Assembly (NCBI GenBank): GCA_044892525.1
Contig: CM097885.1
Coordinates: 189,534,001-189,598,000, forward strand
Source: Schmidtea polychroa
Lineage: Eukaryota
Reading direction: 5' to 3'
DNA: 64,000 nt
In this document: in pieces, positions 5,995 through 57,149 of the stretch
Numbering within the stretch: position 1 is the stretch's first letter
How the letters are laid out: the number at the start of each line of letters is the position of its first letter
The notes under the pieces: generated by a model
Databases searched by the model: none
What the model was told of the DNA's origin: nothing
The model's input: the letters and a program-made list of their open reading frames with translations, nothing else
Program-made: the position numbers and the translations under genes

Positions 5995-6072
5995 TTGATT
6001 ATCCAGTTTTACTCTGGCTCTAGTTCCTAACGCTATTTTGTTTTATTTCAATATCTACCCGCTGATAATTTT

Positions 6073-6090
6073 ATCACGTCGGGCTCACCA
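6073..6090 (-). promoter_or_regulatory. Primer binding site complementary to tRNA-Trp 3' end
   Basis: Minus strand TGGTGAGCCCGACGTGAT. Plus strand atcacgtcgggctcacca matches the animal tRNA-Trp 3' end (ATCACGTCGGGGTCACCA, from memory) at 17/18. Confidence 0.85.
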
Positions 6091-6093
6091 AAA

Positions 6094-6427
6094 TGTTAGG
6101 TTCGATAGGTAGGTAGTCGAACTAACACAAAAAATCTGACTCCAAATAAATAATTTATGCGTGTAGGTAATAAATAAGAAATATGATTTAAAACGTTTAT
6201 TAACAATAAAATTTACACGATTGTTTATTTTTGTACAAATAAATCACGCTGCTCTCTAAAGGAAAGAAAACGGTTATACAAACCGTCCTGAAGAGTATTT
6301 CTAAGAATCAAGGCTGGCCCTAAATGCGCCAACAGCCCGATATAGGTGAACGGAAAAGAGATAGGGAAGTTTACCAAATTTTTACGCGATGGAGTTAACC
6401 CAGAAATTGGTTAACTCTTTTTCAACA
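6094..6427 (-). repeat. Putative 5' LTR of the env-bearing element
   Basis: Ends in ...AACA 3 nt before the PBS. Distal end TGTTGAA at ~6427 gives TGTT...AACA termini but is approximate because the second LTR is outside the window. Confidence 0.6.
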
Positions 6428-10728: not shown

Positions 10729-12080
10729 ATGTCAAAAATAAATGAAAACTTGAATAAAATTTCCCAGTTGCTTTCAGAGCACAAATTTATGATTGTCAGT
10801 GATATAGCTGACGAATACAAATGTGGAATTTGCAAAGGAATTATCAACAATGCCCATCAAATAATATGCGGATGTAATTTTTGTATGGAATGTATTAATC
10901 AATATATTGGCAATGGCGGGGCTAAATGTCCAGCATGCCAATATGAAAATGTATTAGAGATTTCAAAACATCACAAATTGAACTTACAAATTTCTACAAT
11001 TACCGTGAGATCTCCAATTAAAAATTGCAATCATGAATGCCAGCTCACAGAAATGGACGAGCATTTGAGATTATACTCAAAAAGAAATGTGGAATGCCCG
11101 TTTTGCGGTATTGGCTGTCAGTTGAAGGATATAAGCTGGGATAAGTTGAATAAGCATTCCATCTCTAATATTGACAACTACAACAATATGAGAAAAGATG
11201 AGGCAATTGAATCATTGAGAAATAAAATCAATGCGATAAAGGCAAATCAAATATCTGATTGATTTATTAATAACTGGCATAATTCAGCAAGAAAATCGAG
11301 AGCTGAAAACCATGATGAGAAATAGTAATAATAATTTGTGGATCAAATTGGATCAGATGGATATCGAGATAAATGACAGGTGCAGAAATGATACGGTCAA
11401 ATCGATAAATGAGCAAATTGAATCTGTGAGAGTAAAATAATTGATTGAATTGATCTGATTCAAATCAATCAATTGGAATTGGAACAGCAAATGAAAATTA
11501 TCGACAGAAAATGCCAAGTGAGAATTGAGAGAATTTGATTATTGTTGATGATAAATTGATCTCAGGAATTGAATGGAAATGTGCAAATCATTCACCAGGT
11601 GAAGGCTGACAGTGATATGATGGCGAAGGCAATGAAGGGTGAAATGGATAAACTGACAAGGGAAATAAATCGAATCAATAAATTCCTGAAAATGCGCCTT
11701 GATGGGGAGTTCCTGTTGTCAATCGGTAAAATCAATGAAATGCAATGGATGTGCAGTGATTCATTCTATAATCTCCAGAATCCATATCCAATGCAATTGG
11801 GGTTGATTAATGCAGCTGATAAATTGAATGTTCAGTTATGGATTCATTCTGCTGCATTTGATGATGATTTGCAATGGCCAATGAAGGCAGAAATAAATAT
11901 TTATATTAGATCATTAAATAATCAACAATCAAAATCATTGGCAAATCACTAACAATCAAAAAACCAGCAGATAAATCACATGAACGAAGTGATGCATTAT
12001 CATTTACCCATGCAGATCTGAAAACATTACAAATGCTTGATAATAATTGTTCACTTCTTTGTTCTGTTAAATTTAAATAA
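10729..12080 (+). pseudogene. TRAF-like (RING, zf-TRAF, coiled coil, MATH) probable pseudogene
   Basis: RING CGICKGIINNAHQIICGCNFCMEC...KCPAC; zf-TRAF-like segment; MATH-like SDSFYN...AFDDDLQWPMK, ending CSVKFK-stop at 12080. Several stops and frameshifts; no clear introns. Confidence 0.75.
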
Positions 12081-16199: not shown

Positions 16200-17230
16200 T
16201 CAATTAAGGATATTTACTATGGTTCGAAATCCCAATCATAGACAATTACTATGATCATATTAAATTAAGCCAGGAGACCGGAGGTCGAAAGTCATTTTGG
16301 TAATTTTAGAGAAACTTAGAATGAATCAATTCAGATCAAAGCTGTCACACAATCGACCGGAGTCGAAACGCTGGTAAGAAGATGTAAAGGGATGTAATCA
16401 TTCTGGTTCCGTCCGGACTATGTAAAGAATGTGCACCAAAGGATCAATCAGTACGATCCGTGATCTGAAGATTATAATTAGAGAGCAAGCCGAACGCTTG
16501 AATGGCATGGCAGCTAAATGGCACGTGGATCACGGCTTTAGAAAAGAGCCCACATACTTGGAACACGAATTGTTTCACGCAATGCTCACTCTTGTGGCTA
16601 AGTTATCTAGCAACCGCCAACTCTAGTTCCAGATGGAAAGAAACCTGCCACAAAGTCTCATCCAGGGAAACACGAGCCGAACTAAATCCAACGACTGAAA
16701 AGCACACAGATAACGGCCCAATAAAAAAATCCGATGGAAGCGAACGATTTGTTATTATGGTTTTGATTTGATTAATATTAAATGTGTTATTATACTTTGT
16801 TAATTAATGGATTTAAATAAGTAAACATCACAGAGATTCAAATTAGAAAAAGGGAAAGTCTAGTGACAGTAATGAAATGTATTTAATGAGTCAAATAGGC
16901 TTAAACACGATAAAAATATAAACTAAAACGAGAAGGTTTAGCCAAAAGTAATGAAATATGAAATAGGGACAATAAAAAACAAGGCACAGTACCTTCTATG
17001 ATAAGCCAGTGAACCCAAAGTTACGTCAGAGTATCAGCAGTCCTTGAAATTGAGCTCACCTTTTGCTGAGGATTACCCAATAAGGTACAGAACCAACGTC
17101 ACTTGTGACGGGTACATAGTGAAATCGACAACAGATATGAGCAGGTGAAGTAAATTGCGATACGCAACAGAGATCGGGGAATGGTGTAGAAAATTGATTT
17201 TGTCCTCTAATTGTAACCCATTAATACAAT
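16200..17230 (+). repeat. Diverged copy (C) of the dispersed small-ORF / structured-end repeat family
   Basis: Shares CCGGAGGTCGAA (16278) with 41596 and the ordered motifs ACCTTCT, GTGAACCC, GCTCAC, ACCAACGT, ACGGGTAC, GTAACCCA with 45410-45602. Confidence 0.55.
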
Positions 17231-20189: not shown

Positions 20190-21117
20190 ATACATACAAT
20201 ACACAAAAGCTTATTTAAAAACACTCAACACACAAGTATTTACTGCATTCTGCACATTAATTTTCGGATTCAATGATTTTATCAACAACGCCTCACAAAT
20301 CACACGTTCCCAATAATTATCGAAGTTTTTTAATAAAATTTTAAAATCAGACATACCTATTTTAATCTTACAGCCCTTATTGTGCTCACCAATATGGGTC
20401 AAAGACTTCGGTCTACAATGTTCTCGAGCTCGAATACAGAGATGACGGGAAGTCTCTCCAATGTATGTGGCATTACTTCTTCCGAAAGTTTTTGTGAATT
20501 CAAGTATAAAAGAAATATGGTGAAGGGGTTGATTTACCGTGCATGGTCTTTGTCTTCTACTTTTAAAAATTCAGTAAAAAGTGTTGACATATTGGTTGAA
20601 CTGTTAATGAAGAATGGTTATTCAAAATCCTTTTTAGTAATTATGGTGAAAGAGACTGTTGACAAATTTATTAAAAATCCTAAGGATCCATGTTTGAGAA
20701 AATTTGGGTGTGATCTTGTTGAGGTGTGTGAGTCTGATGAGTTAAAATCTGGGTGTGATTTTGTTGAGGTGTGTGAGTCTGATGAGTTAAATTAATTAAA
20801 TAGTGTGAGCAAGAATGATGAGCCTAAATTTGTGTTAGTATTGCCGTACTCAGAAGGTTTTAAGGATTATAAAGTGAAGATAAGAAAGCAGTTAGGGAAT
20901 TTAAACTATAGGATAGTGTCAACTTCATGGAAAGTACGCAATATGTTTATTAATAAGTCAAAAACTCCGGTTGAATTGTGTTCCGATCTCGTCTATCAGT
21001 TTACATGTAATGGGTGTAATGCCACATGCATTGGAGAGACTTCCCGTCATCTCTGTATTCGAGCTCGAGAACATTGTAGACCGAAGTCTTTGACCCATAT
21101 TGGTGAGCACAATAAGG
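20190..21117. mobile_element. Penelope-like element fragment (RT C-terminus plus GIY-YIG) with internal inversion
   Basis: Plus: KRNMVKGLIYRAWSLSS, VYQFTCNGCNATCIGETSRHL..RAREH. Minus: YIG...ERVICEALLIKSLNPKIN. 102-bp inverted duplication. Confidence 0.85.
20705..20791 (+). repeat. 45-bp tandem duplication inside the Penelope fragment
   Basis: tgggtgtgat(c/t)ttgttgaggtgtgtgagtctgatgagttaaa occurs twice. Confidence 0.9.
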
Positions 21118-25700: not shown

Positions 25701-25869
25701 ATATTGAAATGTAAAAGAATTTAAAATACGAGCCGCAAAAAGCGATGGTTATTAGATGGGTGGTGACTATAAATAGGTTAAAAACCGCTGAAAGAACCGT
25801 CGAAAATTTTTTTATTAAAAACATTATTTTTTCATTAAATAAGGCTTAATTTATCACTTTATTGTTTTA

Positions 25870-25931
<62 letters not shown>

Positions 25932-26808
25932 TAATAACTCAACAAAAATATTCTATCTTTATCAGTATATTTTATATGTAATTTTATAAATTTCACCTAT
26001 ACGAGCAGTCTTATTTACACTAAAACTTCCTTAGACACTTGCTATGTGGCCAAATTTGTATATTAATATATTGAAATGTAAAAGAATTTAAAATACGAGC
26101 CGCAAAAAGCGATGGTTATTAGATGGGTGGTGACTATAAATAGGTTAAAAACCGCTGAAAGAACCGTCGAAAATTTTTTTATTAAAAACATTATTTTTTC
26201 ATTAAATAAGGCTTANNNNNNNNNNNNNNNNNNNNNNNNNNNNNNNNNNNNNNNNNNNNNNNNNNNNNNNNNNNNNNNNNNNNNNNNNNNNNNNNNNNNN
26301 NNNNNNNNNNNNNNNNNNNNNNNNNNNNNNNNNNNNNNNNNNNNNNNNNNNNNNNNNNNNNNNNNNNNNNNNNNNNNNNNNNNNNNNNNNNNNNNNNNNN
26401 NNNNNNNNNNNNNNNNNNNNNNNNNNNNNNNNNNNNNNNNNNNNNNNNNNNNNNNNNNNNNNNNNNNNNNNNNNNNNNNNNNNNNNNNNNNNNNNNNNNN
26501 NNNNNNNNNNNNNNNNNNNNNNNNNNNNNNNNNNNNNNNNNNNNNNNNNNNNNNNNNNNNNNNNNNNNNNNNNNNNNNNNNNNNNNNNNNNNNNNNNNNN
26601 NNNNNNNNNNNNNNNNNNNNNNNNNNNNNNNNNNNNNNNNNNNNNNNNNNNNNNNNNNNNNNNNNNNNNNNNNNNNNNNNNNNNNNNNNATATTCTATCT
26701 TTATCAGTATATTTTATATGTAATTTTATAAATTTCACCTATACGAGCAGTCTTATTTACACTAAAACTTCCTTAGACACTTGCTATGTGGCCAAATTTG
26801 TATATTAA
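25701..26808. repeat. ~367-bp tandem repeat with (TAA)n core, spanning an assembly gap
   Basis: 25701-25847 recurs at 26068-26215; 25948-26066 recurs at 26690-26808; (TAA)n at ~25868-25927. Confidence 0.9.
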
Positions 26809-30518: not shown

Positions 30519-31740
30519 ATATTGGTGGGTTAGAGGTAATCCAAAGTTTCTACCTACTCATGCTGTTTCCAGCATAACCCAGGATACAATTGACAGCTGA
30601 CCACTTGATACCCGTTGAGCAATCAACGTTGGTACTGTATCAAGGGTTTGAGTACTGGCAAAAAGTGAGCATACTTAGCATACTATAAATGTCTAGCACC
30701 CATTAGGGTTCACGGACTGCCGATAGAAGGCTTAAATCCGATTTCTCTCGGTCCCATCTGTGCTAATTGATGTTATCGAACAACCAGAATACATATAGAC
30801 ACATGAGTTAACATAATAACAATATTTTTATTCAAATCATACAATTCATGGCAAGAGTTCATAATGCTCCGGTAGACTCTTTCGGGGTAGTTATTGGTAA
30901 GGTCGGTTGAATTGGTCTTTGGACTAGGCTGGCCCGTCGTAACCTGGCCCGAGCAGCCTTACCCGGCCGGACCTTCTTCCTATGGGAAATAGAAGCTGCG
31001 AGTTCATTCGGCCTATGCAGTACTTCTATCAGAAGTTGAATCTTGGTGATTACGTCTCGATCGATCGCTTGTTGATGAACCTGGGTTTCAAGTTCTCTTA
31101 CCCTCAGACGGAGAGCTCGTAGTTCGACTTGGTCTTGAGCGCTCTACAATTGTAACTAGGAAATCAGTTTCAGGAGCTTCTGCATCTCCGCGGCGGGAAC
31201 CAAGAGCTTTACGGCAATGTGCTTTGATTCTCTTCAGCTTGGCCCTATACACTTCCGTCTGTTGTTGCGCTCGTTCCAGGTCCAGGTGCATATCTTCCAA
31301 GAGTTTTATCACTAAATCAAAAGCATAATTAATGACATGTCCTTTCGTACTCTCGTCAGGCGACCCCGCCTTTTCGCTATAATTATCGTTTCATAAAATG
31401 CGATCGTCAAGCTGTAATCCTGTTAAACTCGCTGAAAGCGTCCATGATTTGGGTGATAAACGAAAAAATAAAATAATAACACATTATGAATAAATTAGAA
31501 TATAATCAAAGACGATTAAATTAATATTATACAAATGATCATCTATTCAGAATAACTAAGGTGCGTTAAGTATGTCATTAAAAAAAATCAAAACAAAACA
31601 GGATCACAAGGGGCTGATATTCGGCCCAACTGTTTAATTTGTTTATTCCGATTGGATTTTTCGCGGACGTCCTCGTTTTCGTGGCTGATCTGTTTCTGTG
31701 GGACGCATGCCCTGTGGTGGTCTTCTTGGGCGTTTACTTT
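30519..31740 (-). repeat. Copy A of the dispersed small-ORF / structured-end repeat family (3' part)
   Basis: RKRGRPRK at 31681-31658; ORF2 exon from 31311; 30601-30638 matches the reverse complement of 45486-45523 at 36/38. Confidence 0.8.
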
Positions 31741-31972
31741 TTTTATATGACATAATTTACAATAATATTTTACAATTGGCCAATTCCTGATTAGTAACTT
31801 TAGTTTAGTAAATTAATTTACAGAGATAAATATTGGTTTTTAACTTTTATAAAGAAATTGTGGATTAAATAGAACACCAATAAAGTCCAGAGATAGTGAT
31901 TTTCGAAATAAATCATTATCATAGTTAAAATATATTTATAATTTCAATAAAAATATTCACAGGCATTTGGAT

Positions 31973-34105
31973 TTAATGTGAATTTTGTGGCTGAATACTA
32001 GAAGCCAGTTTTTCAATGTCAGGTTGAAGTTTAGTTGTTGCCAGAATCATAAGTCCATTCGAGTTCGAATCAGTAAGGCGTGAACGATTCTTGCTTTTAA
32101 TCAATTTCATTGCAGAAAATGACTGCTCGCATCTGTATGTGCTACCAAAACGACAAACATAACGTTGTGCAAAAGATCGCATATGTTCAAAGTCACTCTC
32201 TGGGAGCAGGTTCCAAAATGATATCATATCATCTGCAGTTGGAATAACCGGAAGCTCGGCGAATCGACTTTTCAAAACTGAGTTACACTTCAGATCTATA
32301 ATTTCAAGTTGCAAATTCTCATCTAGGCAGTTGATCCTTTTGTCTGGAAAGTTGAAAGGATTGGTAAAAAGAGCCGCATTGTCAGACTGATCTGCAAATT
32401 CACTGAATCGTGACTGAAAAGCTGTCAAAAGTTCGACAACCATACACCTATATTTGTCTTCATCAAAGTCATTACCTGTCATCCTTTCTTTCATGTGTTG
32501 AAAATTGTCAGATTTTTTTTGGATAACTGATTGGCAAATAATTGTAATTTCATTTTGAAAGAAGCAATACAGTTACACAGATTTGCAAACAGATTGTTAC
32601 TTGCTTGCAACTTCAAATTTAGATTGTTGAGATGCCCTGTAATGTCCACCAAGAATGCTAAATCATTCAGCCATTCATTATTTGAAAGATATTCACGTTC
32701 TATAGGTAACTCATTAATTTCCGCCAAAAATTCCAAAATACTTCCTTTTAAATCTCAGAATCGCGACAGAACTTTACCTTTTGACAACCATCTGACCTCA
32801 CAGTGCAGAAGAAGTTCACCATATTCAGCATCTAATTCTGAAATAAACTGTCTAAATTCTCGCCTATGCAATGATTTTGCACGGATTTTGTTCACACACT
32901 TCACTACTACATCCATAACGTGCTTCATATTCATGGATTTCCCACAAAGCGACTCCTGGTGAATAATGCAGTGATATTTTAAAAGTGGACGAGCAAGAAA
33001 TTTTTCGAGCAAAGACAAACATCCTACATGTCTGCCTGTTAGAGCTGGTGCACCATCTGTGCAAATGCTATCCAACCTTTTCCAATCCAATTTATTTTTT
33101 TCTGCGTATGATTTTAAAACCTCAAACAAATCTGTGCCTTTGGTTGTCTCTTGTATGGACTCAAGTCCAAGCAACTCTTCGATAACCTCGAAAGTATTAC
33201 TCACCGCGCGAATAAAAATTGTTACCTGTGCGGTATCGCTAATGTCAGTTGACTCGTCCATTGCAAGTGAGAAAAACTTGCAGTTTGATGCGTGAAATGC
33301 AATTTGCTCACTAACGTTATTAGCAAGTTCCTCAACCCGTCTTGTCATTGTATTGTTCGATAGTGGAATATCTTTAAACTTGGCTTCAATGTTTTTTTTC
33401 TCCTAGCATTCTGGCGGCTATTTCAAGAACTGGCTTCATAATCTCTTCTCCATCAGTAAAGGGTTTCTTCTTCTTTGCCAAAAGAAGTGCCACTTCATAC
33501 GATGCAATTACCATACTTTTGTTTTGCTGTAGTATAGCAGTAAATAAGGATTGTTGGACATTCATTCCTTTCTCCTTCTTGGCGATAAATTCCCTTCGTA
33601 AATCAGAGGCCATTGGATATTTATCGACCAAATCTGCATGGCTACTGTTGAAATGTCTTTCCATATTATATTTCTTTACAACTGAAACGCTAAATCCACA
33701 AACCAAGCAGACCGGCTTTCCGTTACGACCAAGAGCAAACATATACCTCTCTTTCCACTCGTCATTAAATTCACGACATGCTAAGTTTTTATATTGTTCA
33801 AACTTTCTTTTATCCATGATTTTAAATTCCGAGCTCGTTTTTTAACCAAATTAGATAATTAAAAGAATTTATAAATAAAATCAGAAGATTGAAATAAAAT
33901 CAGATTATTGATGAAAACCAAGCAAAATTAATCGATACACAGTTCTTTTATTATTAAATTGGCATCTGGTTTTATCATGGTTTAAAACGAAGTTCAAGAC
34001 AAACTTTTCCCAAAGAAGGTGTGAATGTGAATTTTTTCTTAGTTTTCTTTGTTGAGCAGAGGGCCACTTTTTTATGCCCGGCGGGCCACGGGTTGGGAAC
34101 CATTG
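31973..34105 (-). pseudogene. hAT transposase (GTF2IRD2/SPIN-like), near full length with frameshifts, 5' TIR present
   Basis: BED-like CLVC...NMERHF, FSLAMDESTD, CTDGAPAL, HCIIHQESLC, EVRWLSKG, FGSTYRCEQSFS; TIR CAATGGTTCCCAACC at 34105. Confidence 0.92.
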
Positions 34106-34229: not shown

Positions 34230-35698
34230 GACGAATGGACAGGCAGAAATGTTAAACGATATTTGAACGTAATCTTACACAGTAAAAATAAAGCGCATGC
34301 CAATTGAAAGTTCGTGCAATGCAGTTAAGTTGAAAAATTTGGTTAAAGAAAAATTGCTTTGCTTTGGTCTGAAATTTGCGGAAGACATTATCGCTTCCAC
34401 AAACGATGGAGCTGCAATGATGAAAAAATATGGAGGGTTAATAGAAACTTTGTTCCAATCATTCTATTCACCTAGCAGTAATTGATGTTTTTTATAAAAA
34501 AATTGTAACCGAAAACATAATTTTTGATGATGTTGAAGAAATAATTACAACTTTTAGACCAGATATTAATAAAACATTAGCAGAAACCAGAACCGTTATT
34601 AAAAAATTTTAAAATTCACCGGTAATGAACTCAATTTTGCAAAATTATGTCAGAGACCATAAAGGCAAAAATTTGAGTATATGTTAGATTGTAAAACCCG
34701 CTGGAATTCTCTTATCCCAATGATTGAATATTTATTAAAATTGAAAGAATGTATCAAGAAAGCACGAATGATATTGGTTGTTTCGATATTTATAAAGAGG
34801 AAAATGAGGTAGTTTTGGAAGAAATTTTAACAAATATGAAACCAACTGAATTGGCTGTTAACGAATTAAGTAAAGAAAGTGCTACGTTGTTAACTTCTGA
34901 AGGTGTTTTTAAATTTTTGTTTGGAAAGCTTCATGAAATTAATACTAGTTTCATTAAAAAGTGCATTAAAAACTTGAATGAACGACAGACGAAATGAAAC
35001 AGTAATGACGTTGTTGCTATATCTCCAGTGTGGAAAAATGCCTCGAGCCAATGGTGATTTTACATATTCGTCAAAAATTGTAGTTTGTGAATTTGCAAAT
35101 GTTCTTTTGAATAAAATATATCCGGTTTCTGCTATTTCTGAAGAAGCTGGTAGTGACAGCGTGTCAACAGACGGTTGCTTCGAAATAGAAGAAACAGATA
35201 CAAATAAGCTTAATCAAGACATGCACAGGGCAATTTCATCCGTTTTGGTCATGAATAATAGTTCTAATACTGGAAAATATATAAGAGATTTAAAATCAGA
35301 TTTTAAAATATTAGATGTAACCAAGAAGCGTACAGAAAATCTTGAACGATTATACGAGGCCTTATTAACTATAAAACCAACATCTACGGCTACAGAAAAA
35401 GTTTTCTCAACAGCAGGAAATTTCTTGACCAAAATAAGAAGCCGCTTAAACTTCGAATCATTAGATGCACTAATTTTCTTAAAGTGTTATTTTTTAAATA
35501 AAGATAAATAATTCTATACTCTACTCATCAATTATATACTATTTTTTATACTCTATAGATTATAATATATAATGAATTAAAAATATAAAAATATATGAAT
35601 TACAAATATGTTGTTTTTGTTAGAAATACTCGGTTAATTTTCCTTACAGATACTCGAAAACTCGGTTAGTTGATTTTGCCGAGTAATTGTTAGCCCTA
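34230..35698 (+). pseudogene. Second hAT-family transposase remnant with 3' terminus
   Basis: TNDGAAMM, CKTRWNS, PTSTATEKVFSTAG...RSRL..ESLDALIFLK dimerisation motif; end TTAGCCCTA at ~35698. Confidence 0.85.
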
Positions 35699-38053
35699 AT
35701 CATTATGGATTATTTGTATCAAAAAGCCAATAAAGAATAGAATGTTAATATTTGTATGAAATTCATTCACTTAAATCAGCAGATATGTTAGCGTTACTGT
35801 TATTTTGTTAGCTCAAAAACTTGTTTCATCTGGGTAGTGTACATCGAACGCGTGATTTAAATATTCAATATTTAGTGGATTTCAAGAATACTATAGATAG
35901 AACAAGCATATTCAAATAATCCTAATTTTCTAATCAGTTCATTTCAATATGCTACAAAAAATTGCCACGTGATTTTTTGATTTCTCACAGCAATGTCCTG
36001 ATGATTTATGGGTAAAAACTGATTATTTTCAACAAAGAATGAGCCATGTTTTATAAACAAAGTTGAAAAAATGCTTGAATAATAATCTTTTTAATAGTAC
36101 GAATTTAAAATCTTAGAAAACTTAGAAAAAGTATTAGAAAGAGTATTAAAATCAAAGTTCTACCAAAACAAGTTATACTCCATCTAAAAACTGAAAAAAT
36201 CCTAAATCTAATAATAATAAAGTTTAAAAGTTAAAGTGTTATTTTAATTTATATTTTAATCATCAAAATTTAAATCCTAACCAAATATAAATCAACAAAT
36301 GTAAATTATCAGTGTAATATATGAATATATATATAATCAAGATGAATTAGAAGATTTAGATTGTTTGTGAGAGCTCAATTAGCAACACCTTTGCATACTT
36401 TTTACTTCCAAACAACACGCAAGAAAATCGTTAAACCTATGATTTCGGTATTACCCTTCATTTAGTTACAGAATATACCATTCTCAAATTCTCCAAATAC
36501 AATTTCTTGTAATAATAATAATTGAAACACTCAAAAATATTTAAACATTCATCAACCACTTACACAAAGACTGAATAAGTGTGTGTGAGAATGTAGGATT
36601 CGTGTTGGAAGTTGGTAAATGGATAGAGAAACAGACACATGAAAACACGAAATCTTTCACCTTGTGAGATTAAACACATCCGAAAAAATCGAGACACACA
36701 GATAGTTTTTCAATCTCTTAGGTTTAACGACTGGTTGACCATCGATGAGTTTTATTATATACATTTTTGTTGTGGATTAGTAACTTGCAGTTTTGTGTAA
36801 TGGTAAGTAAATGATAAATTAATTACTCTTGAATTTCTCATTTGGCTTTCAAAATATATGATTTACAACCCAAAATATTTAGGTGATTTTTGGAAAACTT
36901 GACAGACTGGAAAGGTTTCAGTAGGAAGTGACCAGTAAACTTACACATTTGTCTAATCGTCTTAAAGTCAGGAATCTAAGGATTCCCGCTAGCTTTATAA
37001 GTCAGCGGCCCACCGAAATAGCTCAAATTTCGAGTTTTTTCGAATAAATGACAAATTAGTTATGATTTATAATATTACCCTAAAATAGATACTAGTAGGA
37101 AATTTCCATTAAATATGGGAGAAACGCTGCCAAGATTTCTGAAAGGTATTAAAAACTTAACCAAATTACGCGGTTGTTTAGTCGAATGTTTATAAAGACC
37201 ACTGTGCAAAATTTGGGAATCTATACTAATTTTAAACGTAAAATAAGAATGTTTTCGACTCAAATTTTTCAAATAACCTGACAGTGAATAATATTAATTT
37301 ATATAAATTCAGTGAAAAAAGACAATAAAAAATTGAAAATGCCAATAATGAACACGAAATAATTGCGAAAACTTAAATTCTCCGTTCAGTAGTCAAGATT
37401 GCATAAAGGCGAATTGGCAACGGAGCTCTTCTAAATTTTACAGATTTTTTGCGCTTAAGAGGTGTGTCATTTACCATCTGCGTACCCATAGCAACAACCA
37501 AGTTGATAATGTAAACTCATCAATTGTTTTCATTTTTGGGTTCAGGACTTCTGATGGAAGGCCTTACGTCACTTTTTATTATCGATTCTTTTATTAGAAC
37601 ATTGTTTCTATTTATTAAATTAAATTATGGTACTCATCGCTTTATGCTATTCACTGTTACCTTTGAAAATTTTGTGCAAGGATCCGCCCTTATTTCCCAT
37701 TTTATACATGTTGTCCTAAATTTTCTACAATAATTGATGTTATCCAGCGTGATCTGCCTATATTTTTAATGTTAACAAATTCAGATTCTACAATGTAACT
37801 CCCTGAGGCAATCTTTTACCCTTTCAATTATATAATGTATGTCACTTTCGTTTGATTTAGGTTTTCTCTAACCGACGAATACTTGTCCAATCAGAATGCG
37901 TGTAATTTTTATTGATTGTGCACACATGCACGAATGTTGCCAGATTTAATTTGAATGAATTTTGTATTTAATTGATTTTTTTAAACAATATAGTTATTTT
38001 AGTTATTTATTTAGTTATTATAGTTATTTTTTATGTCATTTCATTAACTTTAA

Positions 38054-38281: not shown

Positions 38282-41200
38282 TTAATGAGAATTAAAAAAT
38301 TTTTTTTTAATTATTTCTTTTTTTATTTAAATTTTTCCGGTTCTTTTTCTTAAATTCTGCACTTTTTGTCATACCTCCTAAAAACGAGCAATAACAATCT
38401 TAATAAATTTGGTTATGGTTCTTCTTGTCCAATACGACCAATAATCATTCTTAATTTGTTATATTATTAATAATTAATTTTATTTAATATTCTTTTATGT
38501 TCGACTTAACAGATTTTCCAAATGCGTTGTTTCTCTCTTAACTATGTTGTGATTGCAACTTCTTGCGTTTTTCAATTTTATTATACGTGTTTTATTTATT
38601 CTCAACTTGTTGTGTACTTTAATTTGTATTATTTGATGCATAATCATAGATTTTGTGAGATTTTCATGCTATGTATTTTCGACTCATTTAAACAAGCTCT
38701 CAATTCTTTGGTTCTAGCCTAACAAGATGTAAAAAAAATTAAGAATTTAACTGATAATTTTTTGAAAAAAATATTTTGTCCCTAAGTCTATTAATTTATT
38801 TTATATTACATCTACTACACAAATTTCTTTTTTAGCAGCTTTTCATTAATATTTATAATTTTATTTATAATTTTATTTATAATTTTACAATTAAAATGTA
38901 AAAGTTACTTGTTTAAAAGTAATTCCTCTTGGATTATTATATCATTATTATTATATTTATGTAACTAGTATCACATTATTCTAGATAAAGATAAATATGA
39001 ATTACAGAGTTTTTATAAATCTTTTTAATCAAGCTTTAAATATTCGTTACTTTTAATAAGCAGTTTGTTTAAATTTTGCAGGATATTCAATTTGGTTTCA
39101 ATATGGGAATAATAATCTAATCAATCTAATAGTAGCCATATTGACTGTAAATTGTGTAATCAAAATGAACGTTATTTACCCATTTTAGAATTTTTTGCCA
39201 TGATAAAAGAAATTCAATTAATTGTGTTTCTATGAAAGTAGTAAGTTTTTTATCTTATGACTCCGTATTAAAATATCCAATTTTATGTTGCTAATATATA
39301 ATTTTTTTTTAATTTGGTTTATATATTATTTAATATTGTATCTTAAAATGTTACTAACAAGTACAAAAATTATCATTAAAAGTTATTTTGGTTTTTCTCG
39401 TTAAAGTTCGTTATCAAAATTATAATCGTTGGAGCATTTTGTGACGATAGAGAGATTTATTAAATATAAATAACTCATCTACATTTGGTGCAAGCAACAT
39501 ATTTGATGATATTTATAAAAATATTCTAAACAGAGCTATTGATCGTTTGGATCCACAATATCTCTTTAGTATTTCTGCATGGTTGTAAACGTAAAATGAT
39601 ATATTTACTTTCGAATTTGAAATGTTTTTTGCTTCGATTCTGATGTTTCATCGTCATTTTTATTTATGAAATGCTTGACAATAGTTTTACAGATATCACC
39701 ATTTTTTCATATTGTTTATTGTACATTATATAAAACCACAATTGATGTGTTTAACATTATATTGAATAAAATTTTATAGTACCACAGTAATATATTTATC
39801 GTTTTATGACTTTCATATTCACTTTTTTTGTTTGCCGATGACAATTTCTTTTATACTAAGATACTTCTCACTTGCCTGTACAAAACAAATGTATTTTGAA
39901 GCGATATATCCGTCACGTATGCTTTTGGTACTGTACTTTAATAGTGTAAGGGGGGTAGATTGTCCCTATGCAGAGTCTATATCCCGCATTCTTTGTATCG
40001 AATTATATTTATACATTTTAATAAGCACAGTTCAGTCATACCCCTCTTCCAATTAAATTCCGATTTTCTTAATAAAGTTCTAGTTTTATTTATTATTTCC
40101 GATAACAGTTTAAGTTCTAATTTATACTGAAATTATCCGTTTATCTTCCCAATTTAATTAAATTACCTCAACTATCGATAATAAAAACTACAACATTTCA
40201 CTGAACTCGTCTATTTAATCTATTTAATTCATTTGTTGCTTTGATCATAATTGCATATTAGGGTTATTTATCCACAATGTCCTTATTTTACTAGCTTATC
40301 ATACACCTTGAAGTTGTTTAATTCGTCCTTCGTCCACTTTTTACCATATTTCTTTTACCGTTTATCACATGCCTTTATTATGTTCACTATATACATACTC
40401 ATTTATCCTGGTAATCTCATTTGCCTATTGTGTTTATTCTTATTTGTTTTTCAATTACGACTAATAAATAGTTTTAATTTTTATTGATTTGCAGTTAAAT
40501 ATTAAGAACAGAAAATAAATAATAATTTCAAATTATACATCAAATATATTTATGATAACTAAATTTATGGCTTTAATTGTTGTATTAAAAATAGTTTTTA
40601 TGAAATAGGAAATGGTAGATTTTAAGGATAAGATTTAAATTAATAGAAAATTTCAATATATTAAATGAACTTATATATATTTATGTTCTGAACTTTCTTT
40701 ACCCGCAAGGTCATATAAGATTTTATCTACTAAATTCATAATAGGTTACAATATCTAAAAATTGAATTTAACAACAATCTTTGATCAACTTTAGTCTTTT
40801 ATCATTGGATTGTTCTAAACTTTCATCATCCTCAAGGGCATTCAACGTCTCAAGCCCCCTCCCTTTGGTACTTTCAACTATCCAATGAGCATTGGCGATA
40901 ATTTGCACAGGAAAAGGTGATCGGGCAACTTTAGTTACATAAAACATTGAAATTGTTTAAAACAGAAATGAAATCACGAAATGATCTCGAGGTATTAAAC
41001 AGGAGCAACGATCGTTCCTCTTTTCACCCGAGCCAAAATTTGACAAGGATAAAAATACTAATCACACCAAAATTAACATGGAATGTTCTGGAACCGTTCC
41101 AAATCCATCATGGACGTCAAATTAATGAAAAAAAATTTAAAAATAAAAACAAAAATTATGGCAAAAAAATTGCCATTAAAAATATCAAAATTGCGAAATA

Positions 41201-44200
41201 GAAAATTCTGGAATAAAAAGAATTCGAGTTTGTTTTAATGCATCAATACATACACGTGTACAAAATAGGTATATATACCGACACGTTTCGGTCACAAAAA
41301 ATCACTTTATGCAAAATTTTTGTCGACGAATTTTTTCGAGAAACCAATAGTAGGTTTTTTTTTGATTGATGTAATTCTACGTTACATATGTTAATCATTT
41401 ATGTAATTATTTTAATGTAAGCTATTTCTTAATTAAAATGTCCTCAAGATCTAATTTTTGTCTAATTAAGTACGACTGATCAGCGGCGTCTTAGTGCGTC
41501 TCTATTCAGTCCTGCATTTGATTATAATAATTTGTCTTATGAAGCACGCATACATGCATTATTATTATTTATAGAACTTTTGTTGTTCGGGTCAGCCGGA
41601 GGTCGAACTACTTCATGGTCCTGCCATGGAGTTGGGTCGAGGAAACCCTCCGCTTGACTCTTCTTATTTATTAAAGGTCAGCCGTAAATGGTTGACTTAA
41701 CATACAACATTAAGGTTTGTCGAAGTGGTCACAGTGGGGCCATGGAAGCAATATTCTTCCCGACTCAATGCACACAGTCAAACTCAACATTTAAAATCAG
41801 CCCAACAAAAATACCCTAAGGTTGATAAATTGAGTAGATCTCATACCTAACTTAATGACAATTTTGCAAGTTACATTCAATTTAGACGGTTAAAGTATCA
41901 ATTTCAAAGCATAATATTAGTTTCCAAGTAGAATCTTAACCACACTATATAACTTAAGTGGGGGTATAATCGAAAAGTTGACCGCTCATACAGTTTGAAA
42001 AGGCAAATGATGGAAATGCCCTACTCCCAAGACAGTTATACCCGTATGTTATTCTTAAAGATATGATGCGTAAAATGCACTGCCTCCAACCTATCAACTA
42101 TAATCATTTACTAAGTGGAAAATTATAATTTATACCACCCTATCAACTATAATCATTTACTAAGTGGAGAATTATAATTTATATAACCCTAATTACAATA
42201 TAAGATCACTTTCAAATTCCGAAATGTAATTCATCAACATATAGCTATAGAGTATTACTAAGTCCTCGAGTTGAAAATATAATTTATCAATCCATGATGG
42301 TAAACGATAAATATTTATCAGACGTAAAAGTATAATTTATAAATATTTAGTTTATCGTTTTAAGTCCGAAAAATAATTTACGAACCTCTAATTATAACGT
42401 ATAAATGGCTTTCCGATGTTAAAAACATAATCTATAATCTCGTAATCATATCATATGATCAATTTTAAATTCAGAAACAATTTATAACCATGTAAATATA
42501 AAGTATAATCGAGCGTTGATATAACTTATAAAATCCATAATTATAAATTCTAGTTATTTGCCTAACGTAGAAATATAAATTCTAAACCCAATGATTACAA
42601 AATAAATCCTTTTGAAGTTCGAAAATATAGTCATAGACATATAATTAAGAAACGTAACTGGTCTTCAAAGTTAAAAATAGCATTGATAAATTTGTAACTA
42701 TAGGCATAACCATGTATTACGGGAAAAATATAATTCATTTATAAGGTATCAGTAAACTTTGAGTTAAAATAAATTGTATAAGTCTACAACTATAATTATT
42801 ATCAAGTATAATCTAAAGTTACCTTTAGGATTATAACTTATACATAAATATAATCCATAATTCATAACCATATATTAAGTATACAATGTAACTTATAATT
42901 ATTCACTATAAAATACAAATAACTTTCGAGCTGAAAACCTAATTTAGAAGTGTAAAAAATATAACTTATTTATAAAGTTTACCGTTAGAATCATAACCTA
43001 TACATGAATATAATCTATAACTACATCGCGAGTAGAAATTGTAATTTATAATAGCTCACTATAAAATAAATTCCAAGCTAAAACCGTTCATAAGTGCAAG
43101 GAATATATTCTAGTCATATAGCACAATTAAGTTGACAGGTTAAGATTATAATTTATAAAATTATAACTATAAAATATAACGATGTATTAAGTATAAATAC
43201 AATGGGTAATTTTCCCACTATAACGTACGAGCAAAAATTCGAGTTAAACATAACTTAGATATGACTAAATTGCAATTATTTTCAAGTTCGGATACCTAAT
43301 TAAATAATTTTAAGTTGGAATATAATTTATAGCAGTATACCCACCATACTATAGTAGAACTACTCAATGTGATTTATAAGTGGAACTACCACGAACTCCC
43401 TAATATGCTAGTTTAACCTTGAGACACGTGCCCTATAGTCGTTATTAATCGTAAATGCCATCATTATGACCACTGTTGTTGCTTTTGACCTAGAAGGGTG
43501 AATTTTAAACTAAAACTCGAATTACAATATATCTTAAATTCACTTACCATAAGGAGATCTCTCTGTTCAATCATTTTTCGTATTAACCAGCATCGAAATC
43601 TTCTGAAATGTCGAGGAGCCAGTCACAGATAGGGCGATTATTCCTCTGGGATAGGGTTGATGGAGTAGATTTCTAAAAAACGAGAAGCAAAGTATAAAAA
43701 GCAGATCAGGCTATTATGAACAGCTTCGCTGACGAAGAGACATTGGATTGCGACTCAACGATGAGTCCCTCCGTCGACGAAGCCTTCCTTTGAAGCCAAT
43801 AGGGTTAATAAATAATTAGAAAATCTGAATTAGACATTTAAAATTTTTGAATAATTTTCTTTATTGTAAATAATTGATTAATGGTTTTGAACCATTAAAA
43901 CAATCGAATTTAATTCTTAATTCTAATCTTACGGAAAACCAAATTGACAGGTCGAACACTATAAGGAATATAGATAAACCCCAAACGAAAATACAATTTT
44001 GGATAATTTCCTTTTGGTTGGGTTGTTGGCTTGTTTGGAGGTTAAGTTCCTGAGTCACCACCGAGTTAGGTATCAACAGATTGCGCCTGTGATGAAATAA
44101 AGGTGATGTTAAAGTCCCTTAGGTGAGTTTCCTGGTTACGGATTGCTAATGGAAATTTAATCTTAAGCCTATAGTCTAGACATTTTTCACCGCATAATCA

Positions 44201-44232
44201 TCAACAGACTTTTATTTTGGGTAATCATAGAT

Positions 44233-44598
44233 ATGCCACAATCAAGCAGCCATAGTAAAGAGGAGGACCACAGGCAAATGATCACACGGCTCCGTACACG
44301 GTACGTCTGGCACCACATCCACCGGTGGAACCAGGGACGAGACCTGGATTGCACAAATCGAGTGATCCGGAAGGGCCCCGAAGTAGATGCCCCGGCGAGG
44401 GTGAAGGAGGAGCCGGAAAACGATCTTTTGCAAGAGGCCCGTGACCGAGCGGCCGTCGAGGTGGACGCAGCCCAGATGTGACTGAGAAAGCTCGACCTGC
44501 AAATCCGGGCAAACCGAGAAGGAAAGGCTTTGGAGGACCTGGAGGAGGCCGAGGCGACCTCGCGAAAAAGAGGGAGGCCTCGCAAGTACCCGGCCTAA
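44233..44598 (+). CDS. Repeat-family ORF1 with C-terminal AT-hook (one internal TGA at 44479-44481)
   Basis: RLRTRYVWHHIHRW matches RLRSRWIWYKIHDW at 53536-53823; in-frame RKRGRPRK at 44563-44586. Confidence 0.6.
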
Positions 44599-44863
44599 CT
44601 CATTCCCAATTCTAACCCACGATGGACATGTAGCCTGATTTATGTGATGATGAACCTCACTTGAATAAATTCCCTCTTTACTACATTAATAAATTTGATT
44701 TAATGATGAACTTTACTTCGAACCAATTGCCTTTTTAATAAATTATCGCAAAATGAGTTTATTTATCATAATGATAAAATGTCTTTATAATCAGTACTGA
44801 CCTTATTATATAATCGAACGAATCTCATGGCGTAATGACATAATCTAAGTATATTCCTTTCAG

Positions 44864-45222
44864 TGATCAAACTGTTTGAGAACCTACGGAAAGACCGAGA
44901 AGAAGCACAAAAACAGGCCGAGGATATGAGGAAGAAGGTGGCGCAGGTCCTCCAACTGCAAACCCAAGCGGCACAGGATCAGATGGAGATCCGGGCCATG
45001 AAGCTCCAACTCCGTGCGTTAGAAACCGAACGCAATGAACAAGTGGTTCACGGAGCCGCAATAAGTCAAATCCGGCCGTTGACCGTGGAGTTGGCAGCAA
45101 TGTACCCTCCGGCCGCGAAAGTCAAACCCAAAAGGAAGCGGCTGGGACGGAACATCCGGGAAAAATTGAAGAAAGCTAGATTGGCCGAGTATGAACGCCA
45201 AGAAAGGTTGACGTCCAAGTAA
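44864..45222 (+). CDS. Repeat-family ORF2, coiled-coil and basic tail, probably a spliced 3' exon
   Basis: IKLFENL...AQKQ matches IKLLEDM...AQQQ at 31311; both begin directly after an AG acceptor in the same phase. Confidence 0.55.
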
Positions 45223-47329
45223 TCTCCGCAATATGAACAGTTATTTAGGCTATACGCCTTGAATTTTCTTTTGTTATTGTTATGGGTAAATACATTTTCG
45301 TTAGAGTATTGTATGAGGTATGTTGTTTGCAAATATTGAGTGATTGAGAATGAGTGTGTTGAGATTTTGGGAAAACAATCTCGATAAGGGACCGAAAGAA
45401 ATCGGACACAAACCTTCTAACGGTAGTCCGTGAACCCATAGAGTACTCGACAATTATAGTGCCTCGATGCGCTCACTTTTAATCAACAGTACCAACGTTG
45501 ATTACTCAACGGGTACCAAGTGGAAAAACAATGTTGTATTCTGGGTTACGCTGGTAACAGCACTGAATAACAAACACCCGACCACCTGTAACCCACCAAT
45601 ATTATTGGTCAATTTTTTCACTATACACTATATCCAAAAGTAACCCAGAATGTGAAAAAGTTGTTGAACGGAATTTTTCCATTTGCACAAATTTTTTGTA
45701 CAAAAATTAGATCAAGTCTGTCAGATAAATCGTTGACTGCACTTTTTTTAAAAAATTTTATTACAATAAGTCTTGTAATAAGAAAAATGTAGAATTGTAA
45801 ACTTAAGAATCAATAAAAATTATACTCATCGATTTTCTTGCATTTTGATAAAAAACAGAAAAAAAGCTGTTAGCAGATGTTTTTTTGAAAGTTCTCTTTT
45901 TCAGAAACCCTAATTATTATTCGTTGTTAAGTTCGTATAAATAATTTGTTATTTGACACTGAGCTGAAATCGATACTGTCAATTATATTCACTACTCAAA
46001 CACATTATAAAAAATGAAATCATTATGGGTTTCGTAGTTAAGGTTCTTGGCGATGTTCTAATGGGGTTACTCAATGTTTTTCTCTCGCTACCTTATTTCC
46101 TCTCGTTCTGTGTACAATAATAATTCTCTTCTTCACGCCAGATGTATATTTTTTCTTTTTGATTATTCTTCTGGCTTTAATTTTATCCTAAACTCTAAGC
46201 TCTTCCAAAGTCTAATGATTAATAACACATTAATGAAATTAAATCGCAAAATAAACTGTTGATTGAGTGCATAAACCTTTGAAAGTACTCGGTTTCTTGT
46301 TCGACTTTTCTGGTATTCTTGAGTATAAAATCAACAAACATTCAACAAAATATAGATTTATTAATACCAAATATACAACACTAAAATATCGCATTGAACT
46401 CAAAAAATGTCAATAAATTACAATGAGTTATAGTACTATGTCGTATATGGAGAGGTCAGCTTTCAGTAACTTTATACGTCTTTCGTTTATTCGTTAATGC
46501 CTTAATGTTAATTTTTTGGGACAGGAGCAGTCATTTATTGATATATTTATTGCTTTGTTGAACGGATTGTCACTTGATAATGTCCAATCAAATGTGCTGT
46601 ATTCAGGGATTATTTTTTGGTTTTCCTAATTACATAAATTGTCTAGCGTGGGTTACACCAGATAACCAAAGCAGCGCCTCTGAATCCTCGGAATTATCAT
46701 TAAATTGCATCCTATCCAATTAATTTTTAAATCTTAATAACAATAATAATATTACTAATAATACCAATTTTGTTTATTTATTTAATTTATTCATATTTTC
46801 CAGCATGATATAGCCATTTCTATTTAATTTTAATATATGATTCTTTCTGAAAAAATCACCCTCATTTGACTGACTTTATATTAAGTTCATTTAAGAAGGT
46901 AGATACTAACTCTGTATACAACCCCATTCACCCATGATACACTGGATGGTCGGTAGGGTACAGAAGGGTAACAATGTTCAGGTCAAAGTGAACTATTTAT
47001 TCTCGTATAAAAAAGTCTACCGTAAAGTTCTGAATATAGTACCCCCCCCCCATAGAGTACCCCGGGACACTAATAGCAACATTTTTCCAAATACAGTGTA
47101 CAGTAATTGGATTTTTTATTTTTTGGAAATTATTTTCGAACTTCATATTGGATTTATATTTCATGCTAGTTTTATTCTAACTACTACTAAAACCATTATG
47201 CAAATGGTGTGAAACTTTATCTATTAATATATCCATTTATATTTGTTAAACATCATTTTGACAAGTATAAATATAGACAAGGAGGCCGAAAATATAAACG
47301 ATTTTTGAACAAATTCTCATTTGACAACT

Positions 47330-53399: not shown

Positions 53400-56300
53400 A
53401 TTTGGTAGACTCTTTTAGTGATCAATTCCGCATTAGGCGTTGCTATTCTCATCATTATACATATTTCCTCCGCTTGCGGTCTTGGTTTCAAGCTCAGTTC
53501 GTCCTGGATTTTTGATAACTGGTCTGCTTTTCGATTTAGTCGTTGTAGTGAATTGCTTGATGCAACCGGTCCACCGCCTCATCGAATGCGTCAATCAAAG
53601 CCAGAGAGGTGTAATTGATGTAGGGTTCCGTCTTCGGGACCACTGGGACTACGTTCTGGTAGGTCCAATCATGGATCTTGTACCAGATCCATCTGGACCT
53701 CAGGCGGGTGAGTTCTTCCTCCTGGTCCAGTCTGGTGACTTCGTCTGCCTCCTGAGTTGTTCCTAGGCTCGAGTCGGTTGATGAGGGACCGGCCTGCACA
53801 TTTCTTGATCTAGTGTTGGGCATGTCTATAATGATAGAATTTAATCGAAGTTTTGTTCATGCGCCCCAGTTTAGTCAACGAAGGACGCTTGGTACGTGGT
53901 TACATTTCGAACTCTAGCATCATACTCATTCCATCGAATCGCTAATGATTTCTTATGATTTAAAGCGGACCCCCCAACCCCTAGTTGGTTCGATTTACTT
54001 CTGGCTCGAATAATAGTCTATGTCATCTTCATTGTCGGTGGAATCGTCTTCCGAAATTTCACCATTTTCTAACCGCTTCAATATTCTCTTCATCTCTTCT
54101 GGTCGCATTTTTGATAAATTTCTATAATAAAATAAAAATAATTCCAACACCAAGCTATGCAGAAAAATAATGAAACGGAAGTTCAAAAAGTTTTTATAAC
54201 TAAAGAATTAGTAGGTAGGTTTTATGTAGGGCGGAATGCCTGAAGCATCAAAATTGATACTCACAAAAATAGCACTAGTTTCTTCAAGTAAAACATGCAC
54301 TCGCAAAAAGTAATTATATCATAGCGAAAATAATATATTCACTTACCTCAAAAGTATTTATATTCTTCAGAAAAAGAAAATATATCAAATTTGTATTCAA
54401 CAAAACTTTTAGTAAAATGTGTTTATTTGTTCACTTTGCCGCGCAAGTAATATGTCATAGATAAAATAAGACAATAATGACATTTGTTTTTTTTTTAATT
54501 TCGTTGGAAAGAATATTATACAACAGTAAAATACGAACAGCCAACCTATAAAAAAACTAATAGTAATGTGAACATTCGGTTTAAAAGATTGGTATCAAAA
54601 TTGAAACTCTAGGTTATTAAGGGTTAAAGGAGAATAATACCATGAAATGGATTTATAGCTTTATTATTTTAAATGATAATAGTACAATGAAATGGATTTA
54701 TCATTTTATAATATTAAATGATAATATTACAATAAAATGGATTGATCATTTTATGATATCTAAATATTATTAAATGTGATTAATACCATAAAATGGGTTT
54801 CTAATTTTATAAGATTAAATGATAATAGTAAAATAAAGTGGGTTTGTAGTTTTATGGTATCTAAATAATATTAAGTGTTAATGATCCAACGAACTGGATT
54901 TATCATCTCAAGACGAAACTTGGGGTCAATGCAATTTGTAATAATTAAGCTAGACTTTAGTTCGAATACAAGTGAACACACAAGAAAAATTCTTTATGAA
55001 ATAATTTAGAGGTGCTTTTTATAATTAGTCAAATTTATATAGGGGTTGCCGATAACATGATTCTAAATAGTGTGGCATAATAATTAATATCTATATTCTT
55101 ATGAAACGTCCTTCTAGCTGGGGAAACCTCAATAACCAGTTTTTAAATGAACTAAGATGTCTGTTTATGAAAATCGAACGAGGTAGGCTCTCTTATACTA
55201 AGGTAAAATACAATGATCATTAACCTATAATTTCATGAGATGTCTTTTAACCAAGGTTGATTTATGATATGGTTGTTAATAAATAATTAGAGGAGGCATA
55301 ATTTTAGTTCGTACCGATTCATAACCAATTTTACATAGTACGGGTATCGATATAGGACTTTATTGAATACATTTTCGTAATTGGATTTAAGATTTAAGGT
55401 TTATCACCCCAATGATCTGGGATATTAGTATTCAATAGATCATTATAAGGTAGATGATTATAAAATTGAATTTCCCTAGATTCGGGTTATTGGGTACTAA
55501 ATTTCTGATCAATATAACTATGAACAATATCAATAGAATCTATTAATAATATTCAATCTTAAGTATACTAAATAATAGAATGACTTGTGTGATTAGCCGA
55601 CCATCAGAGTGCCTTTGTAGTAAATTGAGTCTGGGATATTTCCCGTTTAAATTTCCCTAATGGTGTGTTTCCTATAGAACAGTTGAGTGTTTATTTTAGG
55701 CATGTCATTTATCGAAAGGTCGAATTAATTAAAATTTTCCTATTTTCCCGACTCAACTGAATACGGTACGATATGCCTTATTGTATTATTTTCCCCGCGA
55801 TTATTATCCCAAAGGTTATTTCGTCCGCATAGTCCCTATGACTACGCCAACTACCGGGATGGGTTTACCCGCCCTACTCATGGTTAAACATATCCGGTTA
55901 AAATTCATAATTTTAATGCATGTAGGGTCGTAGACCCGAATTTGTGAATGTAGATTATCAGTTAGAAACAAGGCTGATCGGCGTCGTGAGTATAACACGT
56001 CTACGACGATGCCGATCACTCTTGTTCCGCAATAGTAAAATTAAACAATAAAACTAAAGTTTGACCAAAAGGGGATTTTGATCCTAACGCATTAATAAAG
56101 CAACAAAAAAAATCAATATAATGAGACAAAATAGGATAACAAATAATAAAATAACAATTATTCATATAATAACGTTAATCAATAGTCCTTACTATTAGTA
56201 TGTTCTGGATCCTCCGAAAAAAATTTTTGGCATAAAAAAGATTAAATTGTGACTAAAATGCGTCGGTATATATACCTATTTTTGTGTGTGCAAATACACG

Positions 56301-56465
56301 TGTATGTATTGATGCATTAAAACAAACTCGAAGTCTTTTTATTCTAGAATTGTCTATTTTTGATATTTTTAATGGCGATTTTTGCGCCATAATTTTTATT
56401 TTCTAATTATTTCTTGCTAATTTTACGTCCATGATGGATTTGGAACGGTTCCAGAACATTCCATA
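53400..56465 (-). repeat. Copy D of the dispersed repeat family (5' block, AT-rich tract, ORF1)
   Basis: 56200-56465 is an inverted copy of 41070-41340; AT-rich tract 54640-55560; ORF 53823-53536 homologous to ORF1 of copy B. Confidence 0.65.
53985..54623 (-). mobile_element. piggyBac-like 5' end fragment inside copy D
   Basis: Terminus TTAA-CCCTTAATAACC at 54627-54612; acidic N-terminal-like peptide ISEDDSTDNEDDIDY. Confidence 0.5.
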
Positions 56466-57149
56466 TTACTTTTAATTTAATTTTTATTTTAATTGATGTT
56501 TTCTGAATTTCTTTTTAAGAATTTTTATTTTTATTGCTAATTTATTTATTTTGGTGACCTTTATTGTTTTATGTGGCTTTCCTGATGGTTTTCGCCATCG
56601 TCATGAAATGTTCTGGGATTTTCTAGAATTTTTCGATGTTTTACCATCTTTCTAAGCTATTCGAGTCTGTTTTTTTGTCATTCTATGTTTCTTTGCTATT
56701 TTTGATTTATATTTTTGCACAACTTCTTGCTTTTGTATTATTTTATTTAATTTCTGGGTTTATATTTTTGTTGTTTTCCCTCTTAATTACTATTGTTTAC
56801 TTGGTGTATTTTTATATTTAACTGTACTTTTTGCGTGCTATGTACCTACGCATTCCAGTCACAAATTATAGTTTGGGTCTAGAAATCAGTTCTAGCCCAA
56901 CAGTATGAAAAGAAAATTCGTTATCTACTGATGAAATTCATTAATACAAAATATTCAAATTATACTTAATCCTTGTAATTGGTCAATTTTCATTTTCAAT
57001 TTCCTTTATCTTCATTTCAAATTATACATTAATATCTACTTATCTAATTTATGAATAAAAAATTGTCATTTCTTTCATGAAATGAAGGTATAAGGAGTCG
57101 ACGATAAATTCTATAAATTTTATTTAACCCCATTTATTACTAAGTTAAT

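Follow-up and report, generated by a model that had tools for sequence, protein, structure and literature searches.

An apparently undescribed covarying fold that ends the copies of an abundant retroelement-type repeat family

What kind of element ends in a folded segment that is better kept than the reading frames beside it, and what might such a fold do? The question is raised by a window of 64,000 nt (the whole stretch analysed here), AT-rich animal DNA crowded with decayed transposons. A preliminary description had picked out two copies of a hairpin-rich segment in it and had proposed a functional RNA element of no assignable family: an LTR R-U5 structure, a packaging or 3'-processing signal, or a ribozyme. 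Working from the window, together with contigs assembled from four public runs and aligned to it, we conclude that this segment, the terminus, has a real, covarying fold and forms the 3' end shared by copies of a repeat family. The copies are as follows:

30519-30755, minus strand: structured terminus, copy A (motifs, A/B alignment, fold controls)
45388-45602, plus strand: structured terminus, copy B (motifs, A/B alignment, contigs)
16966-17226, plus strand: structured terminus, diverged copy D, absent from the preliminary description (nhmmer E 7.4e-06)
37498-37591, minus strand: candidate E, weak and unproven, with the 5' motif of the terminus only (covariance model 13.7 bits, E 0.24)

All the motifs listed in the preliminary description were found at their places in A (minus) and B (plus). 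Its claim that the terminus is conserved also holds: A and B align at 72% over 240 columns (E 2.5e-27) and are identical at 161 of 214 positions (75%), as against 172 of 363 (47%) in the adjacent reading frame, ORF-b, 57 of 130 in the spacer between ORF-b and the terminus, and 31 of 67 in the downstream flank. Copy D was recovered by an A+B profile, and its local alignment to A and to B was reached by 0 of 200 shuffles each; it is an old copy, perhaps a decayed one. For candidate E the alignment test gave 2, 7 and 0 of 300 shuffles against A, B and D respectively, and it is excluded from all copy counts. A 17-nt segment missing from B is present in A, in D and in many contigs (34 to 57 X1 contigs in the analysis of contig loose ends), and 44 contigs diverge across the first hairpin (agreement 0.55, weak).

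The individual helices fare unequally when D is added. CCGA/TCGG, the first hairpin, and CGGAY/GTCCG are both present as letters, but they use the same bases and hence are mutually exclusive; in D the former retains 1 of 4 pairs and the latter its central three of five, with one two-sided change. The 3-bp stem for which a compensatory pair had been reported stands in A and B but has 0 of 3 pairs in D (MAFFT register), and the GNRA hairpin, likewise sound in A and B, keeps 1 of 4 stem pairs there. CACTT/AAGTG and the closing TGGGTTA/TAACCCA helix, both present in A and B, hold 3 of 5 and 5 of 7 pairs in D, with no covariation in either. The long hairpin is better preserved: its upper stem has 5 of 5 pairs in D with two two-sided changes, and its lower part, in a register unlike that drawn earlier, 4 of 5, likewise with two-sided change. 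Two helices with two-sided changes are absent from the earlier drawing and are supported by A and B alone, one long-range (B 45441-45446 with 45536-45541) and one a hairpin (B 45458-45473; 2 of 5 pairs in D). A possible UUC/GAA pseudoknot is intact in all three copies, and each copy could also pair its 5' GGG with its 3' CCC, in which case ACCA stays unpaired in A and B; neither set of pairs ever varies, so they are uninformative on covariation. A kissing loop between the first two hairpins was considered and rejected: it fits A and B, and in D its G-C pair and stem are lost.

The A+B consensus reaches -45.9 kcal/mol. Class-preserving column shuffles give -22.9, and randomly placed substitutions -24.9 and -27.6; in each of these controls 0 of 300 fold as low. 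Under a stricter control, which keeps the block pattern (clustering) of the A/B differences and rotates it, the ORF-sense strand gave 1 and 0 of 150 as low and the opposite strand 1 and 9 of 150; two control stretches gave 10-47 of 150, which is not significant. Taken by strand, the consensus folds at about -45.8 in ORF sense versus -39.0 on the opposite strand. Single copies are less uniform: no shuffle of 200 folds as well as A, B is weakly better than its shuffles (11 of 200) with no strand preference (z -1.67 vs -1.60), and D folds no better than its shuffles (144 of 200). Single-copy DNA energies do not favour the ORF-sense strand.

Raw counts of two-sided changes mean little by themselves, since a poorly aligned ORF control yields 8. 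In a revised model scored on A, B and D, 8 of 42 pairs change on both sides and 87% of 123 cells are paired, as compared with 0-2 two-sided pairs and 27-40% of cells paired in slid controls. The model was derived from the same three copies that were scored, and with only three sequences this amounts to support, not proof. Read on the ORF-sense strand, three one-sided changes amount to G-U wobble exchanges, as expected for RNA. Covariation, counted on three copies, favours the fold as a whole (8 of 42 pairs), with none in its closing helix or CACTT/AAGTG. With the fold controls and the searches below, it supports that part of the earlier reading which saw a structured element under selection and outside the Rfam families.

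No Rfam family explains the terminus: the scan, which the preliminary description had called for, gave no match at gathering score in the window, and what it did return on A and B, at E 1.9-9.6, is at chance level. Pattern scans for the terminus found nothing in viral contigs or in prokaryote genomes, and a 16-mer from it hit 118 metagenome loci, none of them homologous beyond the short word. For the proteins encoded upstream (ORF-b and ORF1), a protein word index returned no match, a full HMMER protein scan returned a single relative, P0003 (an unnamed 157-residue ORF-b relative with an open frame, on short contigs), and Atlas matches were to generic coiled coils; neither related loci nor a named protein relative emerged. 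The fold is not described in the literature searched, a scope outside which lie Repbase, Dfam and Grohme et al. (2018), which may list the family; the available sections of PMC11410931, PMC8532177, PMC3118150 and PMC13238120 hold nothing on it. The structured terminus, though perhaps not its retroelement-type family, is apparently undescribed.

The repeat unit that ends in this fold measures at least 4.5 kb, B being traced over at least 41049-45601. In order, it comprises a conserved block with a TATA-like palindrome, a folded segment, an AT-rich spacer, an AT-hook ORF (ORF1), a basic coiled-coil ORF (ORF-b) and the terminus. Copy C, on the minus strand from about 56500 to 53400, has ORF1, the folded segment and the upstream block in common with B, and no detectable ORF-b or terminus. 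The parts are these:

41049-41325, plus strand: conserved upstream block, copy B (79% to C; high depth)
56215-56493, minus strand: conserved upstream block, copy C (alignment to B)
41470-41870, plus strand: second folded segment, copy B (counterpart in C at about 55600-56060; B vs C, 0 of 200 shuffles)
41870-43500, plus strand: AT-rich spacer with tandem repeats, copy B (multi-copy, lower depth; a contig bridges 41821-42142)
44233-44598, plus strand: ORF1, copy B, with one in-frame stop and a C-terminal AT-hook motif (translation)
31643-31753, minus strand: ORF1 end, copy A, a short AT-hook-type frame, RKRGRPRK (translation; octapeptide identical in B)
53536-53823, minus strand: ORF1 relative, copy C (BLASTP E 7e-07 over 22 residues)
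44848-45222, plus strand: ORF-b, copy B (phmmer match to P0003, E 3.1e-07)
30859-31315, minus strand: ORF-b, copy A, interrupted by stops and a frameshift, for a coiled coil with a basic tail (tblastn with P0003, E 4e-37)
16282-16738, plus strand: what is probably a decayed ORF-b, upstream of D (aligned colinearly as DNA; 1 and 2 of 200 shuffles)
57160-57830, minus strand: ISG20-like exonuclease frame, decayed, co-oriented with C and upstream of it (phmmer to ISG20, E 0.0055)

Both upstream blocks carry the TATA-like palindrome (B 41268-41279) and agree in perfect runs of 40, 38 and 21 nt (window 41078-41117 and 41223-41282), being otherwise barely alignable. Where contigs depart from the alignment at 41069 they carry on as copy C does, which means that the unit does not begin with the upstream block; a start at 41469 with a 4-bp duplication was dropped, as copy C shows that the upstream block belongs to the unit. 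The second folded segment includes a long stable hairpin pair (41580-41720, plus strand; z -4.39, 0 of 200 shuffles) and has no Rfam match. Within the spacers we observe a 45/101-nt tandem array in C (54610-54906) and a 49-nt pair in B (42086-42191). ORF1 of B matches Pfam AT_hook at E 0.053, below the curated cut-off; a likeness to integrase zinc fingers was seen by eye only and set aside, Pfam giving no such match. Protein searches gave no match for the ORF-b upstream of D. AlphaFold models of the unit's proteins are plain helices (pTM 0.34 and 0.30). The ISG20-like frame, which has no Pfam match, is a candidate part of the element; a FLYWCH-like frame, recognised by eye, precedes it (both in 57160-58340, minus strand).

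The family is very abundant and diversified, as contig depth and the three termini within 64 kb show; depth collapses past 45600. Expressed as summed contig depth in runs X1 and X5, which is not a copy number, the unit exceeds unique flank by thousands-fold and peaks at the upstream block and the terminus. In X1, depth falls from 53,466 to 121 past the terminus end, with 104,186 on the terminus and 11.9 in unique flank; the corresponding X5 values are 85,499 to 778, 138,738 and 26. The upstream block compares with the terminus as 31,473 vs 104,186 (X1) and 301,213 vs 138,738 (X5), and similar depth at both conserved ends fits unit-length inserts better, if weakly, than steep 5' truncation.

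Other elements crowd the same window. A gypsy-type element on the minus strand (1-6100) encodes Gag zinc knuckles, followed by two extra frames, a fusion glycoprotein of Monjiviricetes type and, after it, the protease; env thus lies between gag and pol, the order described for Burro, and a primer-site-like stretch follows its LTR-like end near 6090. TRAF-like RING and MATH frames lie amid gypsy integrase fragments (10729-11952, plus strand), and hAT transposase remnants (31973-33841 and 34978-35511) adjoin the upstream end of copy A. The TRAF-type frames and the Burro order suggest DNA of planarian type. There is also a 102-nt inverted repeat, 99% complementary, with arms 539 nt apart and a 45-nt tandem pair inside (20375-21117), and an N gap bordered by direct repeats of 148 and 119 nt, each pair identical (25701-26808), probably an assembly artefact.

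What does the fold terminate? All three copies break off at the same position, with ATA plus a pyrimidine next, then unrelated flank, and no shared tail. A and B end in CCCACCA; D ends in CCCATTA and has no CA. The end is therefore either CA next to a preferred target or CCAATA itself, and one X5 contig that leaves the alignment right after 45598 favours the former. Just past the end, A and B each have a CCAAT/ATTGG hairpin, which is not counted in the element. Against the LTR end consensus YNYAACA given in the available part of PMC3601003, A and B match at 6 of 7 positions and D at 5 of 7. A 5' TG start with a 4-6 bp target duplication has many chance matches in the AT-rich flank, none of which stands out. 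No primer-binding site follows any of the three ends in the window, and no polypurine tract with TG precedes C or B; solo or partial LTRs would likewise show neither. AATAAA precedes the fold in one copy of three (A).

We suggest, with a probability of roughly one half, that the terminus is the U5 end of the long, ORF-bearing LTR of a giant gypsy-type retrotransposon, acting as an RNA leader signal. The unit would then be a solo or partial LTR, transcription would start near the TATA-like palindrome of the upstream block, and genomic RNA that begins in a 5' LTR would carry the fold immediately ahead of the primer-binding site, where it may serve packaging, dimerisation or primer presentation. 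Integrase would use the terminal CA as its attachment site, with a target of ATAY type beyond it, and the basic coiled-coil protein may bind the folded RNA. Selection would act on the diverged subfamilies, not on the decayed copies, which would account for a fold in better condition than the reading frames. The R plus U5 implied here, about 4 kb, is unusually long. In planarians, giant gypsy elements that carry accessory ORFs and tandem repeats do reach thousands of copies, according to the available sections of PMC6431247, and the env-bearing gypsy element of the window speaks for the same reading. Among the readings offered in the preliminary description, an LTR R-U5 or packaging signal fits best, by its end consensus and TATA-like motif, but the primer site and the paired copies are missing: nowhere in the window is a gag-pol region bordered by another copy of the unit, and the LTR end of the window's env-bearing gypsy element is unrelated to the terminus.

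The main alternative, possible but unlikely, is that the fold is the true RNA 3' end of a non-LTR or Penelope/Terminon-like multi-ORF retroelement, a template signal for the reverse transcriptase that might expose CCA. The 3' end is common to A, B and D while the traceable extent upstream differs, GGG/CCC pairing would leave ACCA free in two of them, and the co-oriented small ORFs, the coiled coil and the nearby DEDD-type exonuclease remnant resemble Terminon cargo as set out in the available sections of PMC6431247. The pairing, being invariant, proves nothing, and the upstream block is about as deep as the terminus, a weak argument against the idea. No reverse transcriptase is linked to the unit within the window, the ends have no shared tail, and telomeric repeats are absent at or after them (the telomeric complement occurs as a single hexamer, with no tandem run in the window). 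Nor is there a hammerhead: one core-like match in A (31343-31359) is by eye without stem I and is absent from B.

It is improbable that the element is of the rolling-circle or tyrosine-recombinase kind, with a fold that serves as its end signal while the DNA is single-stranded. Such an element would suit the sharp, tailless end, the presence of a conserved block at either end of the unit as traced, and the failure to find a target duplication. A CTRR 3' end is the criterion for Helitrons, and the unit has neither this nor an inverted terminal repeat; the wobble exchanges favour one strand and RNA, and the consensus folds better in ORF sense, though the single-copy DNA energies do not favour that strand.

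More speculative is a new retroelement design with a pseudoknotted RNA end, in which 5' GGG/3' CCC pairing would expose ACCA and that end, together with the element's own basic coiled-coil protein, would start reverse transcription without LTR priming or poly(A); we regard this reading as a long shot. An acceptor stem with free ACCA is possible in A and B, with no covariation, and D lacks the CCA. Were the RNA truly to end at CCA, animals would have a way of replicating such elements that is new to them.

The ribozyme offered earlier fails the HDV-like test (P2, loop G, catalytic C) and the hammerhead test. HDV-like ribozymes have a P1 of about 7 bp followed by a separate P2 helix. We consider it very unlikely that the 5' part of the terminus is a variant HDV-like self-cleaving ribozyme, a reading prompted by a run of stem, 7-nt loop starting UUC, stem, 7 nt and GAA that resembles P3/L3/P1'/P1.1 and contains the possible UUC/GAA pseudoknot found in all three copies. 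The P3-like stem (3 bp, with a 7-nt L3 in A and B) is broken in D, the conserved P1 partner leaves 3 nt for P2, no P2 of at least 5 bp exists in B, and the candidates in A and D lie at different places. By criteria partly taken from the available part of PMC3774820 (the loop G, and the catalytic C after P4), G is missing both from the loop position and from the cleavage site, there is no conserved catalytic C, and no Rfam ribozyme matched at E up to 10.

Least probable of all is that the unit is an endogenised 3' region of an RNA virus with a tRNA-like end: the small 3' ORFs, the structured end and the CCA of A and B recall one, but viral contigs hold no match, no polymerase is present, the 1.6-kb AT-rich spacer with tandem repeats and the very high abundance fit poorly, and no T-arm lies beside the acceptor-like stem. 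True T-loops have a purine in the loop and a G-C closing pair. The 7-nt loop that had been called T-loop-like has neither, lies at least 170 nt from the terminus end with an unconserved region next to it, and ARAGORN finds no tRNA gene, so that this likeness falls away.

We note that the folded cis-signals of invertebrate LTR retrotransposons are poorly described, and that the present fold is kept across subfamilies whose reading frames barely align and has no Rfam entry. The family is abundant enough for one genome to yield a deep alignment for a covariation test. If the basic protein does bind the fold, this would be an invertebrate element with a Rev/Rec-like protein-RNA pair.

How does the unit compare with known systems? 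With the HDV-like ribozymes of R2 and other retrotransposons, as portrayed in the available part of PMC3774820, the terminus has in common a 3-bp stem, a 7-nt loop and the strand that follows; it differs in sitting at the 3' end and in having no conserved P2, loop G or catalytic C. The bdelloid rotifer Terminons, in the account available from PMC6431247, likewise have a coiled-coil ORF, possible DEDD exonuclease cargo and a 3'-terminal fold, but the unit here has neither a hammerhead nor a telomeric repeat run, and its copies are interstitial. Fungal retroplasmids and the tRNA-like ends of plant viruses would serve, by analogy, as models for initiation at an ACCA end.

Complex retroviruses encode a small Arg/Lys-rich protein beside a large folded RNA in or near the LTR (Rec/RcRE, Rex/RxRE). 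The unit may be analogous, a small basic protein gene adjoining a folded RNA, although its proteins have no sequence or family match to these and binding is putative. In retroviruses, structured R-U5 regions perform leader functions. Like the R-U5 leaders of retroviruses and Metaviridae, the terminus is a folded LTR-like end with, in A and B, a CA near YNYAACA (available part of PMC3601003); unlike them, it comes with a poly(A) signal in one copy of three and two ORFs upstream of the fold, and the start motif, target duplication and primer site were not found. The Burro/GYPSM1 giant gypsy-like LTR elements, with which the unit is compared by description, not by sequence, differ in that the available sections of PMC6431247 describe no LTR-encoded ORFs or RNA fold for them; they resemble it in host (planarian-like for the unit), very high copy number, accessory ORFs, tandem repeats and multi-kilobase terminal regions.
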